From positions 1-64,000 of the IMG/VR virus record IMGVR_UViG_3300020469_000001: a stretch of DNA of 64,000 bases; one strand, 5' to 3'. Every line of letters starts with the position of its first letter. Position 1 is the stretch's first letter. Position numbers and translations under genes: made by a program. Shown in pieces: positions 14,090 to 60,530 of this stretch. The notes under the pieces are model-generated. The model searched no databases and was not told the DNA's origin. It saw only the letters and a list, made by a program, of their open reading frames with translations. The DNA comes from a virus.

Positions 14090-14118
14090 ATTATATCAAA
14101 AATAAGAGGTGATGTCAA
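14090..14118 (-). promoter_or_regulatory. Sigma70 promoter for the fibre operon
   Basis: TTGACA-N17-TATAAT preceded by AAAAATAGTTC. Confidence 0.85.
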
Positions 14119-53976: not shown

Positions 53977-54515
53977 CTTTTAGAGGAATGAAAGCGTATC
54001 TATATCTTAAACTTATAACTCGATTTTGTGATAGACTTTTTAATATAAATCAGAAAATCAGAATTTATGATTTAGATGGAACTATAATAGATTCGAGCCA
54101 CCGAGCAAAGCATAATGAATATGGAAAATTAGATTTAGACCATTGGAAAGAAAACAATACTAAAGAAAATATTTTTAAAGATGATTTGCTTCCTATGTAT
54201 TGGCAACTCGTAGCCGATTATAAGAATGGCGATTATATTATTTTATGCACAGCTAGAGAAATGGGAAAATGGGATTTAGAATATTTGCATACAATGGGTA
54301 TTTATTACGATAAAATTTTATGTAGAAATGAAAATGAAAATACTGCCGATTGGAAATTAAAAAGGCGTTTACTAAATCCATATTTTAATTTGAAGCCATT
54401 TAGAAATATACAAAAATATTTCTATGATGATAACGATTCTAACCTTTTAGCCATTGGCGATATGGGGGCGACTTGTTGCAACGCTAAAGAATGGAATAAC
54501 AAATTTAGCAAATAG
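53973..54515 (+). CDS. HAD-family phosphatase (nucleotidase/PNKP-phosphatase-like)
   Basis: YDLDGT, LCTAR, conserved Lys, FYDDN. Confidence 0.85.
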   Translation: MTFRGMKAYLYLKLITRFCDRLFNINQKIRIYDLDGTIIDSSHRAKHNEYGKLDLDHWKENNTKENIFKDDLLPMYWQLVADYKNGDYIILCTAREMGKWDLEYLHTMGIYYDKILCRNENENTADWKLKRRLLNPYFNLKPFRNIQKYFYDDNDSNLLAIGDMGATCCNAKEWNNKFSK

Positions 54516-54527
54516 AAAGGGGGAACA

Positions 54528-54556
54528 GGGGCGAGAAATCGCCCCACTTTTTTTTT
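54528..54556 (+). terminator. Intrinsic terminator
   Basis: GGGGCGA-GAAA-TCGCCCC followed by a T run. Confidence 0.9.
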
Positions 54557-54612
54557 CAAAAAAAGACTTGACTTTTACCCCAAAATCCTGTAAAAAAATC
54601 CACAAAAAAACT

Positions 54613-54700
54613 TGTCACAAAACTTGACTTTTTCTCGTGCGTGGTTTAAAATTTGTTTATCTAAACAGATAAACCCGAAGGGCTAGCAAATTTTAAACCA
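54613..54700. repeat. Branched palindrome, copy 2 (inverted relative to copy 1)
   Basis: 14-bp inverted repeat TGGTTTAAAATTTG, internal hairpins in reversed order, flanking TGTCACAAAA.TTGAC. Confidence 0.9.
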
Positions 54701-54904
54701 AGAACGATTTATCAACCTTCACAAATCCATAACACGAAACGCCAAAAATGTCAAGGGTTAATTTTCAAAAATTTTGTGATATAATCACTAGGTGAATTTA
54801 CTTTATAAATATAGAATCGTCATGGAATTAATCAGAACTGTAATTCCTGTTATTATGGTCATATTACAGGGCATAATTATTTTTAAATTATTTTCATAAA
54901 TCGC

Positions 54905-54933
54905 TTGACAATAGGGGCGAAATCGCCGATAAT
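54905..54933 (+). promoter_or_regulatory. Sigma70 promoter for the candidate sRNA
   Basis: TTGACA-N17-GATAAT. Confidence 0.7.
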
Positions 54934-54945
54934 ATTTATATTGAT

Positions 54946-55212
54946 TGAGAGGGAAACAACCGAAAGGGAAACGAACTCGACAGACTAGGAAAGACAACAG
55001 AAACATAGACACAGAAACCCACTCTCTAAGAATCGAACTCGCAGAACTTCAACCACCTCCGAGACTGAGTCGCTGACAAGGTCAACAGGGAATGAACTCA
55101 AAATCAAGACAGGCTAGGAAGTCTCGACCAACTAGCCGACCGAGAGGGAAAGGACTCATACTCCGAGATTATATCAAAAGAGATTGTTGGACTTCCCCTC
55201 TCACTTTTTTTT
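54946..55212 (+). ncRNA. Candidate ~260-nt GGA-rich sRNA
   Basis: Own promoter, 5'/3' end pairing, terminal T run, no convincing ORF. Confidence 0.5.
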
Positions 55213-55365
55213 CACCGATTTTTTCGGAGGACTGCCCCTGCCCGAGATTTGAGAAATCCTGACGCGCCCTGCGCCAACGCAGTGCAGTGTCGAAACGAAA
55301 CGTGGTGCGGGTGCGCCAAAGGCAGTGCAGTAACGAAACGAGAGGTCTGCGCAGAGCGATCCGAC

Positions 55366-55400
55366 TTATCCACAGGTTATCCCCAAGTCTCTGTGGGTAT
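55366..55400. promoter_or_regulatory. DnaA-box cluster
   Basis: TTATCCACA (55366), TTATCCCCA (55377), inverted TGTGGGTAT (55392). Confidence 0.6.
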
Positions 55401-55461
55401 CCCGCCCCCCACCCTATTATTGTATCACACTTTGTCGCTCTTGTCAAGTCTTTTTGAAAAT

Positions 55462-55483
55462 AAAAAACCCGCTTTCGCGGGTT
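55462..55483 (-). terminator. Intrinsic terminator
   Basis: AACCCGC-GAAA-GCGGGUU followed by U residues on the minus strand. Confidence 0.8.
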
Positions 55484-55489
55484 CTGTGA

Positions 55490-55642
55490 TTAGGAACAGA
55501 TGTCGATTAATCTTTTGATTGTTTCTGCATTCGCTCTCTCAAGACTGTTTAAGAAACCTTTGTCGGCTCTGATTACCACCTCTAATTCTGCAACTAATGT
55601 TGCTTTAGTTTTTACAACTTTTTTCGCTTTTTCGTTTTTCAT
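55490..55642 (-). CDS. A2/D3-family C-terminal half protein
   Basis: TKATLVAELE...LNSLERAN; AAGGAG RBS before MKNEK. Confidence 0.65.
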   Translation of the reverse strand: MKNEKAKKVVKTKATLVAELEVVIRADKGFLNSLERANAETIKRLIDICS

Positions 55643-56034
55643 TTCGTTCTCCTTATTTATAGATATAATTATACGCACATTTTCTAGGATATCAAGAACT
55701 ATTTTACATTATTTTCAGAAATTACCACAAAACACCAAAAAACCCGCCCCAACTGCCTGAAAGCCCCTGTTTATGCGGGTTTCACGGGCACGCTCCGCGC
55801 CAAACGCCCAGTGCAGTATCGAAACGAAGTGCGAAAGTGAAGTGCCAAAGCGAAGTGCTAAAACGAACTAGTCTATAATTAGGTTATTTATAGTATATCA
55901 TACATTTGGGCGGGTGTCAAGGGAATTTTGCACAAATTTGCGTTTTTTGCGACAAATCGCAACGAAGGTTGGTGGTTTCGCGTCCCGCCCCCCGAATCAA
56001 ATGCTGATAAATTATAAATAAATCACATTTATTG

Positions 56035-56164
56035 TTGACACAAGTGATAAAAGCGAATATAATATATACATATTAAAAAGGAGGCAAAAGTGAAATACAA
56101 GAAAACAATCAAATCAAAGTTTTTTCATAAAATCCTTGACAATAGAAACAAAAGTGGTTATAAT
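56035..56164 (+). promoter_or_regulatory. Two tandem consensus sigma70 promoters
   Basis: TTGACA-N17-TATAAT at 56035-56063 and 56136-56164. Confidence 0.9.
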
Positions 56165-56194
56165 ATACTATATAAAATATTTGGGAGAATACTA

Positions 56195-56506
56195 ATGGCA
56201 AACGCTAAAAATTATACAGAAGAAATGGTCAGTCAAATGACCGAAGCATACTCTGCTAACCCTAGTAGAGAAACAGTAGACGAACTTGCTCAAACTTTCG
56301 GCAAAACAACTAGAAGTATCATTGCTAAGTTGTCAAGAGAAGGAGTATACATCGCTCAACCTAGAACTACAAAATCTGGTGAACCAGTTGTAGCAAAGTC
56401 TGAGTTAGTTGCTCAACTCGAAGCACACTTTGGAATTGAACTACCTACACTTGTCAAAGCAGGTAAGCAAGACCTACAAAGATTGGTCGACACAATCGCA
56501 TCTTAA
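56195..56506 (+). CDS. T5 A2/D3-like DNA-binding protein
   Basis: NYTEE...GKTTRSIIAKLSREGVY...KSELV; GGGAG RBS before MANAK. Confidence 0.75.
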   Translation: MANAKNYTEEMVSQMTEAYSANPSRETVDELAQTFGKTTRSIIAKLSREGVYIAQPRTTKSGEPVVAKSELVAQLEAHFGIELPTLVKAGKQDLQRLVDTIAS

Positions 56507-56544
56507 TTGTTGAGGAGTGATTACCCTAAGTAATCAATTTTGAA

Positions 56545-56634
56545 GAGAGTATCTATCTGAGGTAAGTGTCTACGGAAGCACACCTAAAGAGGAAGTAGCA
56601 AGTTCGACTCTTGCACCTCAGATATCTCTGCTCT
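56545..56634 (+). ncRNA. tRNA-like RNA with truncated anticodon arm
   Basis: T arm GCAAG-TTCGACT-CTTGC, D-like arm GTG..GG..CAC, 10-bp closing stem. Confidence 0.55.
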
Positions 56635-56671
56635 GCTCAAAGTTTAGTCAGTAAAAAAATCGCTTTTTCTA

Positions 56672-56852
56672 TTGACAAATCCTTAAAAAGCGAGTATAAT
56701 ATATTTATATTCAAAAAAAGGAAAACCCACTGGGACTGGGCATCTGGAAGTGATGACATAGTTAACACTTAGAATTAAACTGTTTGCCCTACCCACCTTT
56801 CAAGAAATAAATCAAAATTTTTCTTGACAAATGGTTAAAAAGTGGATATAAT
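56672..56852 (+). promoter_or_regulatory. Two consensus sigma70 promoters
   Basis: TTGACA-N17-TATAAT at 56672-56700 and 56824-56852. Confidence 0.9.
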
Positions 56853-56859
56853 ATACTTA

Positions 56860-57797
56860 TATTCAAAAACAAAAAAGAATAGCAAAACACGGAGTGAAGT
56901 ACGCCATTAAAGATACTTCTAGTGTGGCGACACGATAAAATGACTGCCGAACGCTCGTTAGATATTGAGAGAAAGCGTTAGATGAGTTCAATATCCGCTT
57001 TTGAGAGTCAGATACAGACATATCCTCCGCAGCAGGAAGCGAGTGTATCTTCGATTGACTTGTCGGTAAAGGGAGTATAAAAGCACGATAACTGCCAGTA
57101 ATTCCTACACTAAGTCCCTTTTTCGGGCAGTAGGTAGTAAGCGATTTCGTTGACTGCTCTCCAAGTAGTGTATTGGCACTATAAAGTCCTGAGGATTAGT
57201 ATGAATTACACAGGTAAAACAGTAAATCATACCGTGATTGACGCGTAGATACATCGAGAATATCACGCAGAGTGAGGAAACCACGCTGATTCTATACCAC
57301 ACCCTCAACCGTTTCGGTAGTAGGAAGTAGAGCATAGAACGAGTAGTAAACCAGTTTGACATTTCAGTGTGCAAGGTATGAGATAATTTCAAAACCCACC
57401 AAGTAATGAGAGCATAAATGCAAACTTCAAGGGCAAGGAAGTTAGAGGAACATATGATGTACTTTAGTTGAGACTTCCACGCTACCTGCGAGTGAGAACC
57501 CACGCGGCGATTCAGGTTTACCTGTCAAAGTAGTAGGGACATTGGGGGCAGTTAGCAACTTAGAGGAAATAGACACCGATTGATGAGTGAGGAAAACAAT
57601 CGAGTGAGCAAGTGAAAGGTCGATACAACCTCTATTCCAAGTATCGCACTTGCAGTTAGGCATACACTATCGTTGAGGTTTCGAGTAAAGCAATCCGAGA
57701 TAGAGAGTAATGCCAAGTTGTAGACCGATATCAGTCTGACAGCGATAGTAAAAAACAAATAGTTTTTTCGAGGGAACAGCGCGTTCCCTCTTTTTTT
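56860..57797 (+). ncRNA. Candidate large structured ncRNA (~900 nt)
   Basis: Promoter-to-terminator unit with no sense ORF of 60 aa or more; many nested stems. Confidence 0.6.
57770..57797 (+). terminator. Intrinsic terminator
   Basis: GAGGGAAC-loop-GTTCCCTC followed by T7. Confidence 0.9.
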
Positions 57798-57847
57798 GTC
57801 TCAAATAAGTTAACATCAAAATTTCTTATGTTAATTTAAAATAGTTC

Positions 57848-57876
57848 TTGACAAACAAGATAAAAGTGAGTATAAT
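57848..57876 (+). promoter_or_regulatory. Sigma70 promoter for the early operon
   Basis: AAAATAGTTC-TTGACA-N17-TATAAT. Confidence 0.9.
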
Positions 57877-58004
57877 ATATGTATCAAAAGAAAAAGGAAA
57901 CCACATTTTCCGACATAATGAGTGTGGGGGTCGTAACCGAAAGCGCAGGGGAGGAGTGAAATGACTCCCCACCTAGATTAACTATTATTTATAAGGAGGG
58001 CATC

Positions 58005-58223
58005 ATGCCAGCAAAATTTAAACCAAGTGAAAAGATTTACAAGAGAGGAGTTCCAGCAAGAAACTTGCCAGAAAGACACTTCTATCTAAAGAACACTCCT
58101 AAAGAGGAACTGTTCTCAGAAATTAACAAGCACAATGTCAAACCAAAACAAAGACAAAAGTGCCTAAACGAACTCGCTAGACGAGGCGTGGAAGTAGTGT
58201 GGACTACTAAGGAGAGTGTGTAA
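58005..58223 (+). CDS. Hypothetical basic protein
   Basis: AAGGAGG RBS. Confidence 0.75.
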   Translation: MPAKFKPSEKIYKRGVPARNLPERHFYLKNTPKEELFSEINKHNVKPKQRQKCLNELARRGVEVVWTTKESV

Positions 58224-58357
58224 TGAGAGCATGGGGAACAAATCATGTGTCGCACAAGAAGAAAACTTCACAGGGCAACGGCAGAGGCACATTCAGTATA
58301 AATATGAACAAGAACAAAAAGCGTTCTTACAAGAAATACAGGGGGCAAGGCAAGTGA
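58223..58357 (+). CDS. Small basic KKYRGQGK-type protein (44 aa, not in ORF track)
   Basis: KKTSQG...MNKNKKRSYKKYRGQGK*; motif common in marine phages; TAATG coupling. Confidence 0.75.
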   Translation: MRAWGTNHVSHKKKTSQGNGRGTFSINMNKNKKRSYKKYRGQGK

Positions 58358-58530
58358 AGACAGCAATGCTAACACAACAGGACTTTCAAGAGTTCAAAAA
58401 GAAAGTGGCAATTCTAGGTAGAGCAGGTATTACATTGGATTATACAGTAGCAAAACCAAACCACAAAAAAGTAAAGATAACAATGCGTACACCAGTGGAC
58501 GCACAAAAGTGGGACGAGGTGTGTGGATGA
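58354..58530 (+). CDS. Hypothetical protein
   Basis: GTGA coupling; 3' half of the tracked 104-aa ORF. Confidence 0.55.
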   Translation: MKTAMLTQQDFQEFKKKVAILGRAGITLDYTVAKPNHKKVKITMRTPVDAQKWDEVCG

Positions 58531-58700
58531 AAAAATTACTAGACGCAATGTGGGAACCGTTTGACAGCGAAGATGCAACAGAGTGGTTCCTCATACTGTT
58601 CGGTTATACAGTATTATTCTTTATCCTATTGGGTGGAGTGATAGAATGGATTTAACAGTATTATTATTAGTAGCAATGTTCTTAGTGTATATGTATTTCA

Positions 58701-58937
58701 ATGACAGGGATGACTGGCGTGGGTAATATAATACGCTTTCCTATTGAAAGGACTGAGATACAACGCTTAGTGAGAGATTTGAGGCATCAGGAAGAAGAAA
58801 TCAAACTGTGCCTCGATGACCTTGAAGCATTAAATGAACATATAGTCGAGTTAACAGCAGAGTATGAATCCCTGTTAAATCGAGTATGTGAACTAAATCA
58901 AATTAATTTAAAAGGAGAAAGTGATGAAGAAAGGTAG
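58701..58937 (+). CDS. Coiled-coil protein
   Basis: NIIRFP motif followed by heptads. Confidence 0.65.
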   Translation: MTGMTGVGNIIRFPIERTEIQRLVRDLRHQEEEIKLCLDDLEALNEHIVELTAEYESLLNRVCELNQINLKGESDEER

Positions 58938-59205
58938 TATGCAATACGACCAGTTTGGTCGCAAGAGAAAAGTATCGCATCTTTACAAGAGTAAGAAAGC
59001 GACGCCTCAGTTTGCGAAACAAGCAAAGAAACAATTTAAAAAGGAAGAAGATATCTACGCCAGTGCACCTATTGGGGAATATGCTGTGCCTGTAGATAAT
59101 TCATATAAACAAGACATCAGTAAGCAATATACGGTATCGATTGCTTACAACAAAGGTGCTTATCAAGTGATACCAAAAGGAGAAGTGAAAGACATTGGCA
59201 AGTAA
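58921..59205 (+). CDS. Hypothetical protein
   Basis: AGGAG RBS; AYNKGAYQVI motif. Confidence 0.7.
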   Translation: MMKKGSMQYDQFGRKRKVSHLYKSKKATPQFAKQAKKQFKKEEDIYASAPIGEYAVPVDNSYKQDISKQYTVSIAYNKGAYQVIPKGEVKDIGK

Positions 59206-59452
59206 ACATTATAAAGTGGGAATGAAAGCAAATGGTAGCACAATAGTAGCAATTCGATACCCCGAAGGCACTTCTAAGAAGTATGAACATTGGGAATGTC
59301 CTGCACGAAACAGTGTAGAACACATGGATGTCGAATTAGCAGATGGTAGAGTGTTATCCAGTAAGGATTTGATACTTGGAAACAAGTTCAAAGTCGAAGA
59401 TGTAGAGAAAATAGACAAATTTATATCTAAAATTAGTGGAGGTGTAGCATAA
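59195..59452 (+). CDS. Hypothetical protein
   Basis: Packed within the operon. Confidence 0.6.
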   Translation: MASKHYKVGMKANGSTIVAIRYPEGTSKKYEHWECPARNSVEHMDVELADGRVLSSKDLILGNKFKVEDVEKIDKFISKISGGVA

Positions 59453-59886
59453 TGAGTAAAATTAATGACTATGCTAGGTTTGTTGATAGTTGTACATCGG
59501 CAACAAGTAAAGATACTAGCAAAATGTGTGATAGAATGGACTATCTACGAGGAAACTACACAATGCAAGGTGGTGAAGTGCTAGAACAAGAAGTAGATAT
59601 GGCAAGATTGATGACTGCCCTGATAGGAATGATGGCAGAGAGTGGAGAATTTGCAGAAGTAGTGAAGAAAAAGGTATTTCAGTCAGATAGCAAGTTCAAA
59701 AGCGATGAGATTTTCCATATGAAACGAGAACTCGGTGATGTATTATGGTATTGGGTTCAAGGATGCAAAGCATTAGGTTTTACACCTGATGAAGTAATGG
59801 ATGAAAACATTAGGAAACTAGAGAGTAGATATCCGAATGGTTTTGAAGTAATTAGAAGTGAAGTCAGAGAAAAGGGGGACATATAA
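59452..59886 (+). CDS. MazG-like NTP pyrophosphohydrolase
   Basis: ESGEFAEVVKK...ELGDVLWY...NIRKL..RYP. Confidence 0.88.
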   Translation: MSKINDYARFVDSCTSATSKDTSKMCDRMDYLRGNYTMQGGEVLEQEVDMARLMTALIGMMAESGEFAEVVKKKVFQSDSKFKSDEIFHMKRELGDVLWYWVQGCKALGFTPDEVMDENIRKLESRYPNGFEVIRSEVREKGDI

Positions 59887-60530
59887 TGGCAAATCATGTA
59901 TATTTTAATATCTCTATAGAGGGGATAACAGAGGAACAGCACTCATGCTTGTTCAAAAGCGAAGAAACAGAAAGACCTCATTGGGACGAAAACGAACCAC
60001 CAATTAAAATGGTTGAGTTAGTAGAAGTCCATGAGCAACCTTTCATGTCTAATCTCGATAAAGAGTATGATGATGAAGGTTGGATTAAAAATTCATGGGA
60101 TTGGTATGTAAACAACTGTGGGGCAAAGTGGGTTTGTATTGAAGAGTGGGAACATAACATGATTACTGGACACAGTGCTTGGTCACAGCCTGTTGCAATG
60201 GTAGAGAACATGCTAGAGTATGCCAGTAATAGATTTGGTATAGAACTTAGTGCAAAAATGACATATGAAGATGAGTTCAGAAACTTTGTAGGAGTAGATG
60301 ACTTTGAAACATACAGTGAAGAAGGAGAATGGTATTGTATGCACAGTGAGAACTATTTAGATGGTGGTGAGTTAACCGAACTACTAGAAGAAAAGTTAAA
60401 ATGTGATGTATCTGATGATGACTTTGACTGGTGGGAAGAATACAAAGCAACAGGATTAGTTCCTAGTGAGTGTGTAGACGAAATGGTTTATAACTTCTTT
60501 GATACAGGAGAGTTAAATTGGGTAAACTAA
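59886..60530 (+). CDS. DUF1281/YubB-like protein
   Basis: WDWYVNNCGAKW, SAWSQP, YEDE. Confidence 0.65.
   Translation: MANHVYFNISIEGITEEQHSCLFKSEETERPHWDENEPPIKMVELVEVHEQPFMSNLDKEYDDEGWIKNSWDWYVNNCGAKWVCIEEWEHNMITGHSAWSQPVAMVENMLEYASNRFGIELSAKMTYEDEFRNFVGVDDFETYSEEGEWYCMHSENYLDGGELTELLEEKLKCDVSDDDFDWWEEYKATGLVPSECVDEMVYNFFDTGELNWVN

Follow-up and report, generated by a model that had tools for sequence, protein, structure and literature searches.

What does a virus encode in about 930 nt that lie between a consensus promoter and a strong terminator and hold no sense open reading frame (ORF)? This question is raised by a locus in the first 64 kb (the window, i.e., the whole stretch of DNA analyzed, to which all coordinates below refer) of a 105,272-bp virus record in IMG/VR. 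The original prediction, made on the window itself, was a structured non-coding RNA (ncRNA) of about 900 nt that could not be assigned to a family and was possibly new. The carrier is an uncultured marine T5-like phage of a virulent lineage: its terminase is 47 to 48% identical to homologs from cultured Demerecviridae (T5-like phages of Pectobacterium, Serratia, and Vibrio). The apparent "terminal repeat" of the record is only a 77-bp assembly overlap. The unit belongs to the early region and lies roughly 5 kb away from the point where gene orientation switches, between a gene for a 103-aa DNA-binding protein (upstream) and a MazG gene, and it occupies the same locus in relatives. Nearby, we found further non-coding units with promoters of their own, a PNKP-like gene that has a phosphatase domain, and a tRNA-like element.

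The predicted boundaries and the lack of a sense frame were confirmed. A sigma-70 promoter on the plus strand (56824-56852; TTGACA-17-TATAAT) agrees with the consensus at 12 of 12 positions, its -35 hexamer at 56824-29 and its -10 hexamer at 56847-52, and the transcript should start near 56859. A terminator scan placed an intrinsic terminator at 57770-57797 (plus strand), consisting of an 8-bp GC-rich stem (57770-57790) and U7 (57791-97), and the next promoter begins 51 nt past it. From promoter to terminator, the whole non-coding unit (56860-57797, plus strand) measures about 940 nt; its sense strand contains 70 stop codons, and the longest open stretch is 42 aa. The longest antisense ORF (132 aa, 57105-57503) shows 62% protein identity in a relative with 84% DNA identity and is elsewhere in the relatives broken into fragments in other frames, and no ORF was conserved on either strand between the unit and its homologs. 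The promoter is a member of a set: 18 consensus promoters of the 105-kb genome are nearly identical to each other. Members of this set (e.g., at 14118, 43994, 51399, 62935, 69572, and 96219) have perfect or near-perfect hexamers, and most also share their flanks, namely, AAAATAGTTC 5' of the -35 hexamer and ATA 3' of the -10 hexamer; apparently, the phage depends throughout its genome on very strong promoters of the host type.

Using the MazG gene and the 103-aa DNA-binding gene as probes, we fetched 138 related loci from IMG/VR, in which an nhmmer search with the unit gave 72 matches from 49 distinct stretches; strand and locus were the same in every case. Overall, about 50 distinct relatives (from IMG/VR and JGI marine contigs) were obtained, all from one T5-like phage clade. 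Except for one relative that is 84% identical, identity to the window is mostly 47 to 59% over the unit, and the best-conserved part is roughly 56940-57300. The homologous units range from 615 to 1,224 nt in about 45 contigs, and the next promoter always lies 49 to 54 nt beyond. Wherever a contig reaches far enough, the layout is constant, i.e., a consensus promoter, the unit, a hairpin with a U-run, and the next promoter. The terminator stems of the relatives differ in sequence, and the hairpin and U-run are kept at the same place.

Covariation was abundant among these homologs, and the claim of a structured RNA was thereby borne out. The core of about 370 nt comprises at least 12 helices, four of which are pseudoknot or long-range pairings. 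RNAalifold analysis of 39 core sequences yielded 27 pairs, and compensatory changes were seen in 20 of these. The 12-helix model, refined by hand (including P7 and PK3) and given here in window coordinates, contains 49 pairs that were 95.3% paired in the 39 sequences, compared to 32 to 46% with slid partners; double changes were observed in 37 of the 49 pairs, and none of 500 shuffles reached the score. The many G-U pairs indicate that the plus strand is the folded strand. Single-sequence folding energy is unremarkable (z = -1.85 for the plus strand and -1.94 for the minus strand) and does not discriminate between the strands, and thus the case rests on comparative data.

Domain 1 (56921-57072, plus strand, as are all elements of the unit described below) carries 34 pairs of the covarying model. 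These were 96.8% paired in 36 sequences versus 26 to 50% with slid partners, and 27 of the 34 showed double changes; the covariation score was 0.567 versus 0.129 or less, and it was reached by none of 500 shuffles. A covariance model of this domain (R1) gave the window 142 bits. In the variable 5' leader lies the hairpin P0 (56897-56919), the GAAGUA/UACUUC helix that had been read from the window; it is kept in the sense that closer relatives have a hairpin of different sequence at the same place, just 5' of P1 (GACAG/CUGUC, GGCAGU/ACUGCC, or CCACCA/UGGUGG). P1 (56922-25/56930-33) is closed by the loop GGCG, and a pairing of the GGC in this loop with GCC at 56946-48 is possible, both sides being invariant. 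The next elements are P2a (56948-50/56975-77), a covarying 3-bp register, and P2b (56954-56/56969-71). An AACGCU/AGCGUU helix formerly proposed in this region fits the window and not the family, as it is 66% paired compared to 95% for the competing register of P2a. A suspected pseudoknot survived in part: its GAUAU/AUAUC portion consists of five pairs that all covary, whereas the UGA/UCA extension is specific to the window. The model places the pseudoknot PK1 at 56961-65/56991-95.

Farther 3', the 3-bp helix P3' (57007-09/57017-19) holds in its 7-nt loop the 5' strand of P3 (57010-16/57044-50), and P4 (57023-26/57034-37) and P5 (57051-55/57062-66) follow. The AGUCA-GAUACA helix of the original prediction likewise stood only in its AGAUACA/UGUAUCU part, all seven pairs of which covary. 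Its AGUC/GACU part, 73% paired and devoid of compensation, was rejected and replaced by a covarying GUC/GAC pairing. Two long-range pairings (57059-57165) join domain 1 to domain 2. One is PK4, between the P5 loop (57059-61) and 57163-65, which was 95.7% paired with both-side changes in three of three pairs; the other is P6 (57072-75/57159-62), which was 84.9% paired with both-side changes in four of four pairs. A variable insert (57076-57158) is enclosed by PK4 and P6. The AAAGGGA/UCCCUUU helix suggested earlier is not kept, its 5' arm overlapping the covarying P6.

Domain 2 (57158-57291, including the linker GAUUGAC) contains P7 (57167-71/57176-80; 98.8% paired, with covariation), P8 (57243-46/57265-68), P9 (57248-51/57261-64), the P8/P9 loop pseudoknot PK3 (57233-35/57254-56), and P10 (57269-74/57282-87; loop AGGAAAC), which was 100% paired and covaries. 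Besides, a helix (57188-91/57211-14) and the pseudoknot PK2 (57199-203/57228-32), both found by eye in the alignment, are confined to the clade of the window. Between subclades, P8 and P9 fall out of register in the alignment fitted to the model (A5), where they are 66% paired, and we therefore scored P8, P9, and PK3 on sequences anchored at the hairpin. In 50 distinct sequences, P8 formed a mean of 3.56 of 4 pairs versus 2.56 ± 0.12 with shuffled partners, and PK3 formed 2.94 of 3 versus 2.55 ± 0.06. PK3 occurs in four covarying states (GGU:ACC, AGU:ACU, CGU:ACG or GCG, and CGC:GCG). The covariance model of domain 2 (R2) gave the window 120 bits. In one relative (L155:7078-7384, minus strand), domain 2 is present twice in tandem (118 and 45 bits), which indicates that the domain has been duplicated within the RNA.

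The 3' half (57292-57749) is variable and modular, and its structure is mostly unsupported because it can be aligned only within a small subclade. We recognized a AACCGUUUCGGUAG hairpin (57307-20), a second P10-type hairpin (57489-94/57501-06), a GAUUCAGG-UUUA-CCUGUCAA module (57509-28), GGGGGCAGUUAGCAAC (57544-59), and a hairpin with GAGUGAGGAAAA in its loop (57577-82/57597-602); A6 (57750-55) and U6 (57763-68) are invariant in the subclade of the window. The recurrence of GAGTGAG noticed earlier at 57270, 57490, and 57585 held, and a fourth copy is present at 57602 (4 occurrences versus 0.09 expected from shuffles). Moreover, AGUA occurs 19 times versus 6.1 ± 2.3 expected, a threefold excess, and GGA was not enriched relative to shuffles (AGGA, 8 versus 5.7 ± 2.3; GGAA, 8 versus 5.8 ± 2.3). 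Distant relatives contain the same small modules, with positions and copy numbers that differ, and modules that the window lacks, such as AACUACCAUAAGAACGG and GGGCAAGUCCC, are also found in relatives. AACUACCAUAAGAACGG is located at differing places in the RNAs of six relatives (L025, L020, L088, L074, L106, and L130), in one relative forming a hairpin loop on a different stem, and behaves like a movable RNA module. Judged by sequence comparison, the 3' half is a mosaic of putative small hairpin modules that have been duplicated, lost, and moved between relatives.

We then asked whether this RNA belongs to a known family and how far it extends. The whole window gave nothing at the gathering score in a search against Rfam 15; even with E values up to 10 or 5, the unit and two divergent relatives (L037 and L112) returned only chance-level rows (e.g., snoRNAs and sRNAs), with no match to GOLLD, ROOL, RNase P RNA, group I or II introns, or known ribozymes. 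The prediction that no family could be assigned was therefore upheld, and no description of the RNA was found in the literature. Neither megablast nor blastn with 1.4 kb matched any of 50,697 deposited phage genomes, and R1 and R2 had no credible match in phages T5, My1, 234P1 of Vibrio, and vB_ValS_X1 (best E = 0.34). When 185,579 bacterial and archaeal species, each represented by one genome, were searched for a 19-nt P8/P9 pattern, 21 matches were obtained, which is the chance level, and none had the full module. A 17-mer of P10 is present in 57 IMG/VR stretches; in JGI metagenomes, where scanning for this exact 17-mer also picks up many chance matches, full domain 2 was found in 26 of the 80 stretches kept. 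The genome under study has a single copy of the RNA. Some more distant relatives escape detection by R1 and nevertheless carry, at this locus, a promoter-to-terminator unit of 0.85 to 1.3 kb with no long sense ORF.

The unit is also present as RNA. Fourteen DNA runs (viromes) contained 98 to 100% of the sampled words of 56700-57900, and six marine metatranscriptome runs contained 70 to 77% of them, which is about the share of this stretch taken by the unit. We compared four RNA runs from four studies with 54000-60000 of the window. Each gave one contig that had no differences from the window and covered the unit only: 936 nt (56826-57755), 918 nt (56826-57743), 878 nt (56902-57755, its 5' end carrying adapter sequence), and 846 nt (56899-57744). 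In one run (X15), the word depth of the unit contig was 3289 versus 6.7 to 88 on neighboring genes, a contig depth that cannot rank genes; in the other three, neighboring genes were thinly covered or uncovered. Assembled contigs of this kind do not reveal the strand or the true ends of an RNA, and relative levels derived from them are unreliable. Carry-over of DNA is an unlikely explanation, as it would not single out non-coding units. A skip joint from 57044 to 57269 in one RNA contig was disregarded, having only 20 letters on one side. Apparently, the unit gives rise to a discrete and abundant RNA in marine RNA libraries.

The surroundings of the unit contain further elements. It had been pointed out that giant phage ncRNAs of this size class occur near tRNA loci; this analogy was not sustained, since ARAGORN found no tRNA or tmRNA gene anywhere in the 64-kb window, and only a tRNA-like element (56545-56638) lies just upstream, with a T-arm-like hairpin at 56598-56614 (GCAAG-UUCGACU-CUUGC, read from the sequence). 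Behind this element lies a consensus promoter (56672-56700), and the short stretch that follows it, about 120 nt, has no clear terminator before the promoter of the large RNA is reached. The start of two RNA contigs at 56826, within the ncRNA promoter, suggests some read-through from this upstream stretch (56672-56823) into the ncRNA. A second separately promoted non-coding unit (54905-55215) has its promoter at 54905-54933, GAGAGGGAAA-type repeats, and a T-run at about 55207-55214. Run X15 contained a 169-nt RNA contig on 54951-55089 at a word depth of 18,702, with a joint going back 139 nt (55089 to 54951), as expected of a tandem repeat or of an RNA that is circular or permuted. A small gene on the minus strand (55490-55678) is flanked by two GC-rich stretches (55200-55420 and 55730-55860; about 50% GC versus about 35% for the genome) in which CAGTGCAGT..CGAAACGA-type motifs are repeated.

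On the downstream side, the next promoter (57848-57876) is followed by about 125 nt of leader sequence in which stems are apparent, and then by the gene for a conserved and very basic 72-aa protein (58005-58223); in 48 of 49 relatives, this gene lies directly downstream of the ncRNA. This protein matched no Pfam or PHROG family and no PDB sequence, and its AlphaFold model (pLDDT, 85.8) had no fold match at E < 1. By position, it is a candidate RNA partner, adjacency alone being no evidence of binding.

Among known systems, GOLLD RNA is similar in being highly structured, pseudoknotted, often phage encoded, of the 0.8-kb class, and built of a conserved and a variable part. However, the RNA described here matches no Rfam model of it and has other helices and motifs; its 5' core is conserved and its 3' half is variable, its carrier is a virulent marine T5-like phage, and, whereas GOLLD often adjoins tRNA genes, ARAGORN finds none here. 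ROOL (Rumen-Originating, Ornate, Large) RNA is likewise a large ornate RNA of phages and prophages with an independent transcription unit; it differs in the lack of a model match to our RNA, in habitat (here the ocean), and in architecture. According to a cryo-EM preprint, ROOL, GOLLD, and OLE form RNA-only multimers (bioRxiv 10.1101/2024.12.08.627333). OLE (Ornate, Large, Extremophilic) RNA, likewise conserved, measures about 600 nt, contains many covarying helices, and has a small conserved protein gene nearby, comparable to the gene of the 72-aa basic protein. OLE is chromosomal, occurs in anaerobic Firmicutes, and has established protein partners, whereas our RNA is phage borne and its neighboring protein has no recognizable fold. 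Exceptionally high expression has been reported for OLE RNA (PMC3413148). The stable RNAs of the tRNA region of phage T5 are also ncRNAs in the early region of a T5-like genome, where the T5 record has tRNA genes with their own annotated promoters, but those tRNA-like RNAs are tRNA sized. Finally, CsrB and RsmZ are abundant ncRNAs with repeated hairpin modules and purine-rich loops, and the P10 loop AGGAAAC indeed carries GGA; however, they are strings of simple hairpins, in contrast to the intricate pseudoknotted core found here, and the idea of a CsrA sponge was dropped because GGA is not enriched (8 occurrences versus 5.7 expected).

Compensated base pairs, the absence of a conserved frame, an own promoter and terminator, and presence as RNA, which together characterize a structured ncRNA gene, were all found for this locus. 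Thus, we consider it highly probable that 56860-57797 is a real ncRNA gene of about 0.9 kb and that it represents a new family, confined within our searches to one uncultured marine T5-like clade. As for function, our best guess, which we put forward at less than even confidence, is that the RNA serves as a scaffold or decoy for a host or phage protein early in infection. Early transcription is expected from the unregulated consensus promoters, which would be used as soon as host polymerase meets the DNA, and the RNA would thus be made from the moment that host RNA polymerase sees the phage genome. It may accumulate as a stable, compactly folded molecule that acts through its shape, binding a host or phage protein and then sequestering or redirecting it during takeover or counter-defence. 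The conserved core would provide stability and architecture, and the repeated peripheral modules would be the binding sites. Against a scaffold or decoy speaks the intricately pseudoknotted core, which is more typical of ribozymes and architectural RNAs than of simple sponges. There is some chance, smaller than that of a scaffold or decoy, that the role lies beyond this one and beyond the RNA-only particle and the ribozyme considered next.

It is conceivable, if rather unlikely, that assembly itself is the function, copies of the RNA forming a closed homo-oligomeric cage or ring as in ROOL and GOLLD. The size class, the phage origin, the own promoter and terminator, and the conserved pseudoknotted core with its variable periphery would all suit such an RNA-only multimeric particle, as would the great abundance in the single run with a high figure. 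Yet neither GOLLD nor ROOL was matched by sequence or model, even at E up to 10, no conserved self-complementary loop was found that could serve as an intermolecular kissing contact, and the covarying loop pairings have their partners inside the same molecule.

Dense tertiary pairing is also what a catalytic RNA would show, and large natural RNAs of such complexity, such as group I and II introns and RNase P, are often catalytic. The core could accordingly be a catalytic center for, e.g., cleavage, ligation, or processing of the neighboring tRNA-like element or other ncRNAs, with the invariant unpaired stretches beside the pseudoknots (the GAUUGA linker, AUAAAA stretches, and the P9 loop) in keeping with this. 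We regard a ribozyme as improbable, given that no ribozyme family of Rfam matched, that metatranscriptome contigs span nearly the whole unit unbroken, and that the unit persists in more distant relatives in which domain 1 is undetectable.

A still less probable explanation, to which we give very little weight, is that the transcript is a by-product, i.e., a strongly transcribed spacer, an origin-priming or R-loop transcript, or a decayed gene, whose conservation reflects a role of the DNA. The early region, close to the switch in gene orientation, would be a fitting place, and origin transcripts elsewhere (ColE1 RNA II and those of T4 oriF and oriG) are promoter driven and non-coding as well. 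Nevertheless, the compensatory changes keep RNA pairs, including G-U pairs and pseudoknots, for which selection on DNA gives no explanation, and a terminator ends the unit in all relatives and a discrete contig is found in RNA libraries. That the unit encodes one or more small proteins, sense or antisense, is barely credible despite the 132-aa antisense ORF of the window and open frames of 40 to 120 aa in relatives, because the sense strand is closed by its stops to 42 aa or less, the antisense ORF is not conserved as a protein, and variation tracks base pairing rather than codons.

To our knowledge, few bacterial or phage RNAs are as large and intricate as this one, namely, OLE, GOLLD, ROOL, HEARO, group I and II introns, and RNase P RNA. 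Each of these opened new biochemistry, and the new family adds one more, offering strong comparative support, more than 50 diverse sequences, and presence in ocean RNA libraries. On account of its size and covariation, the ncRNA lends itself well to cryo-EM and to pull-downs of partners, and its mosaic of movable hairpins is a natural experiment in the evolution of large RNAs. More speculatively, and with no great confidence, it may be the founder of a new class of giant phage RNA unrelated to any known one, a self-assembling particle or a new ribozyme with which a widespread clade of virulent marine phages would take over their hosts, and which would evolve by shuffling small modules around a fixed pseudoknotted core. 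In a virulent T5-like lineage, RNAs expressed early could act in host takeover or counter-defence.
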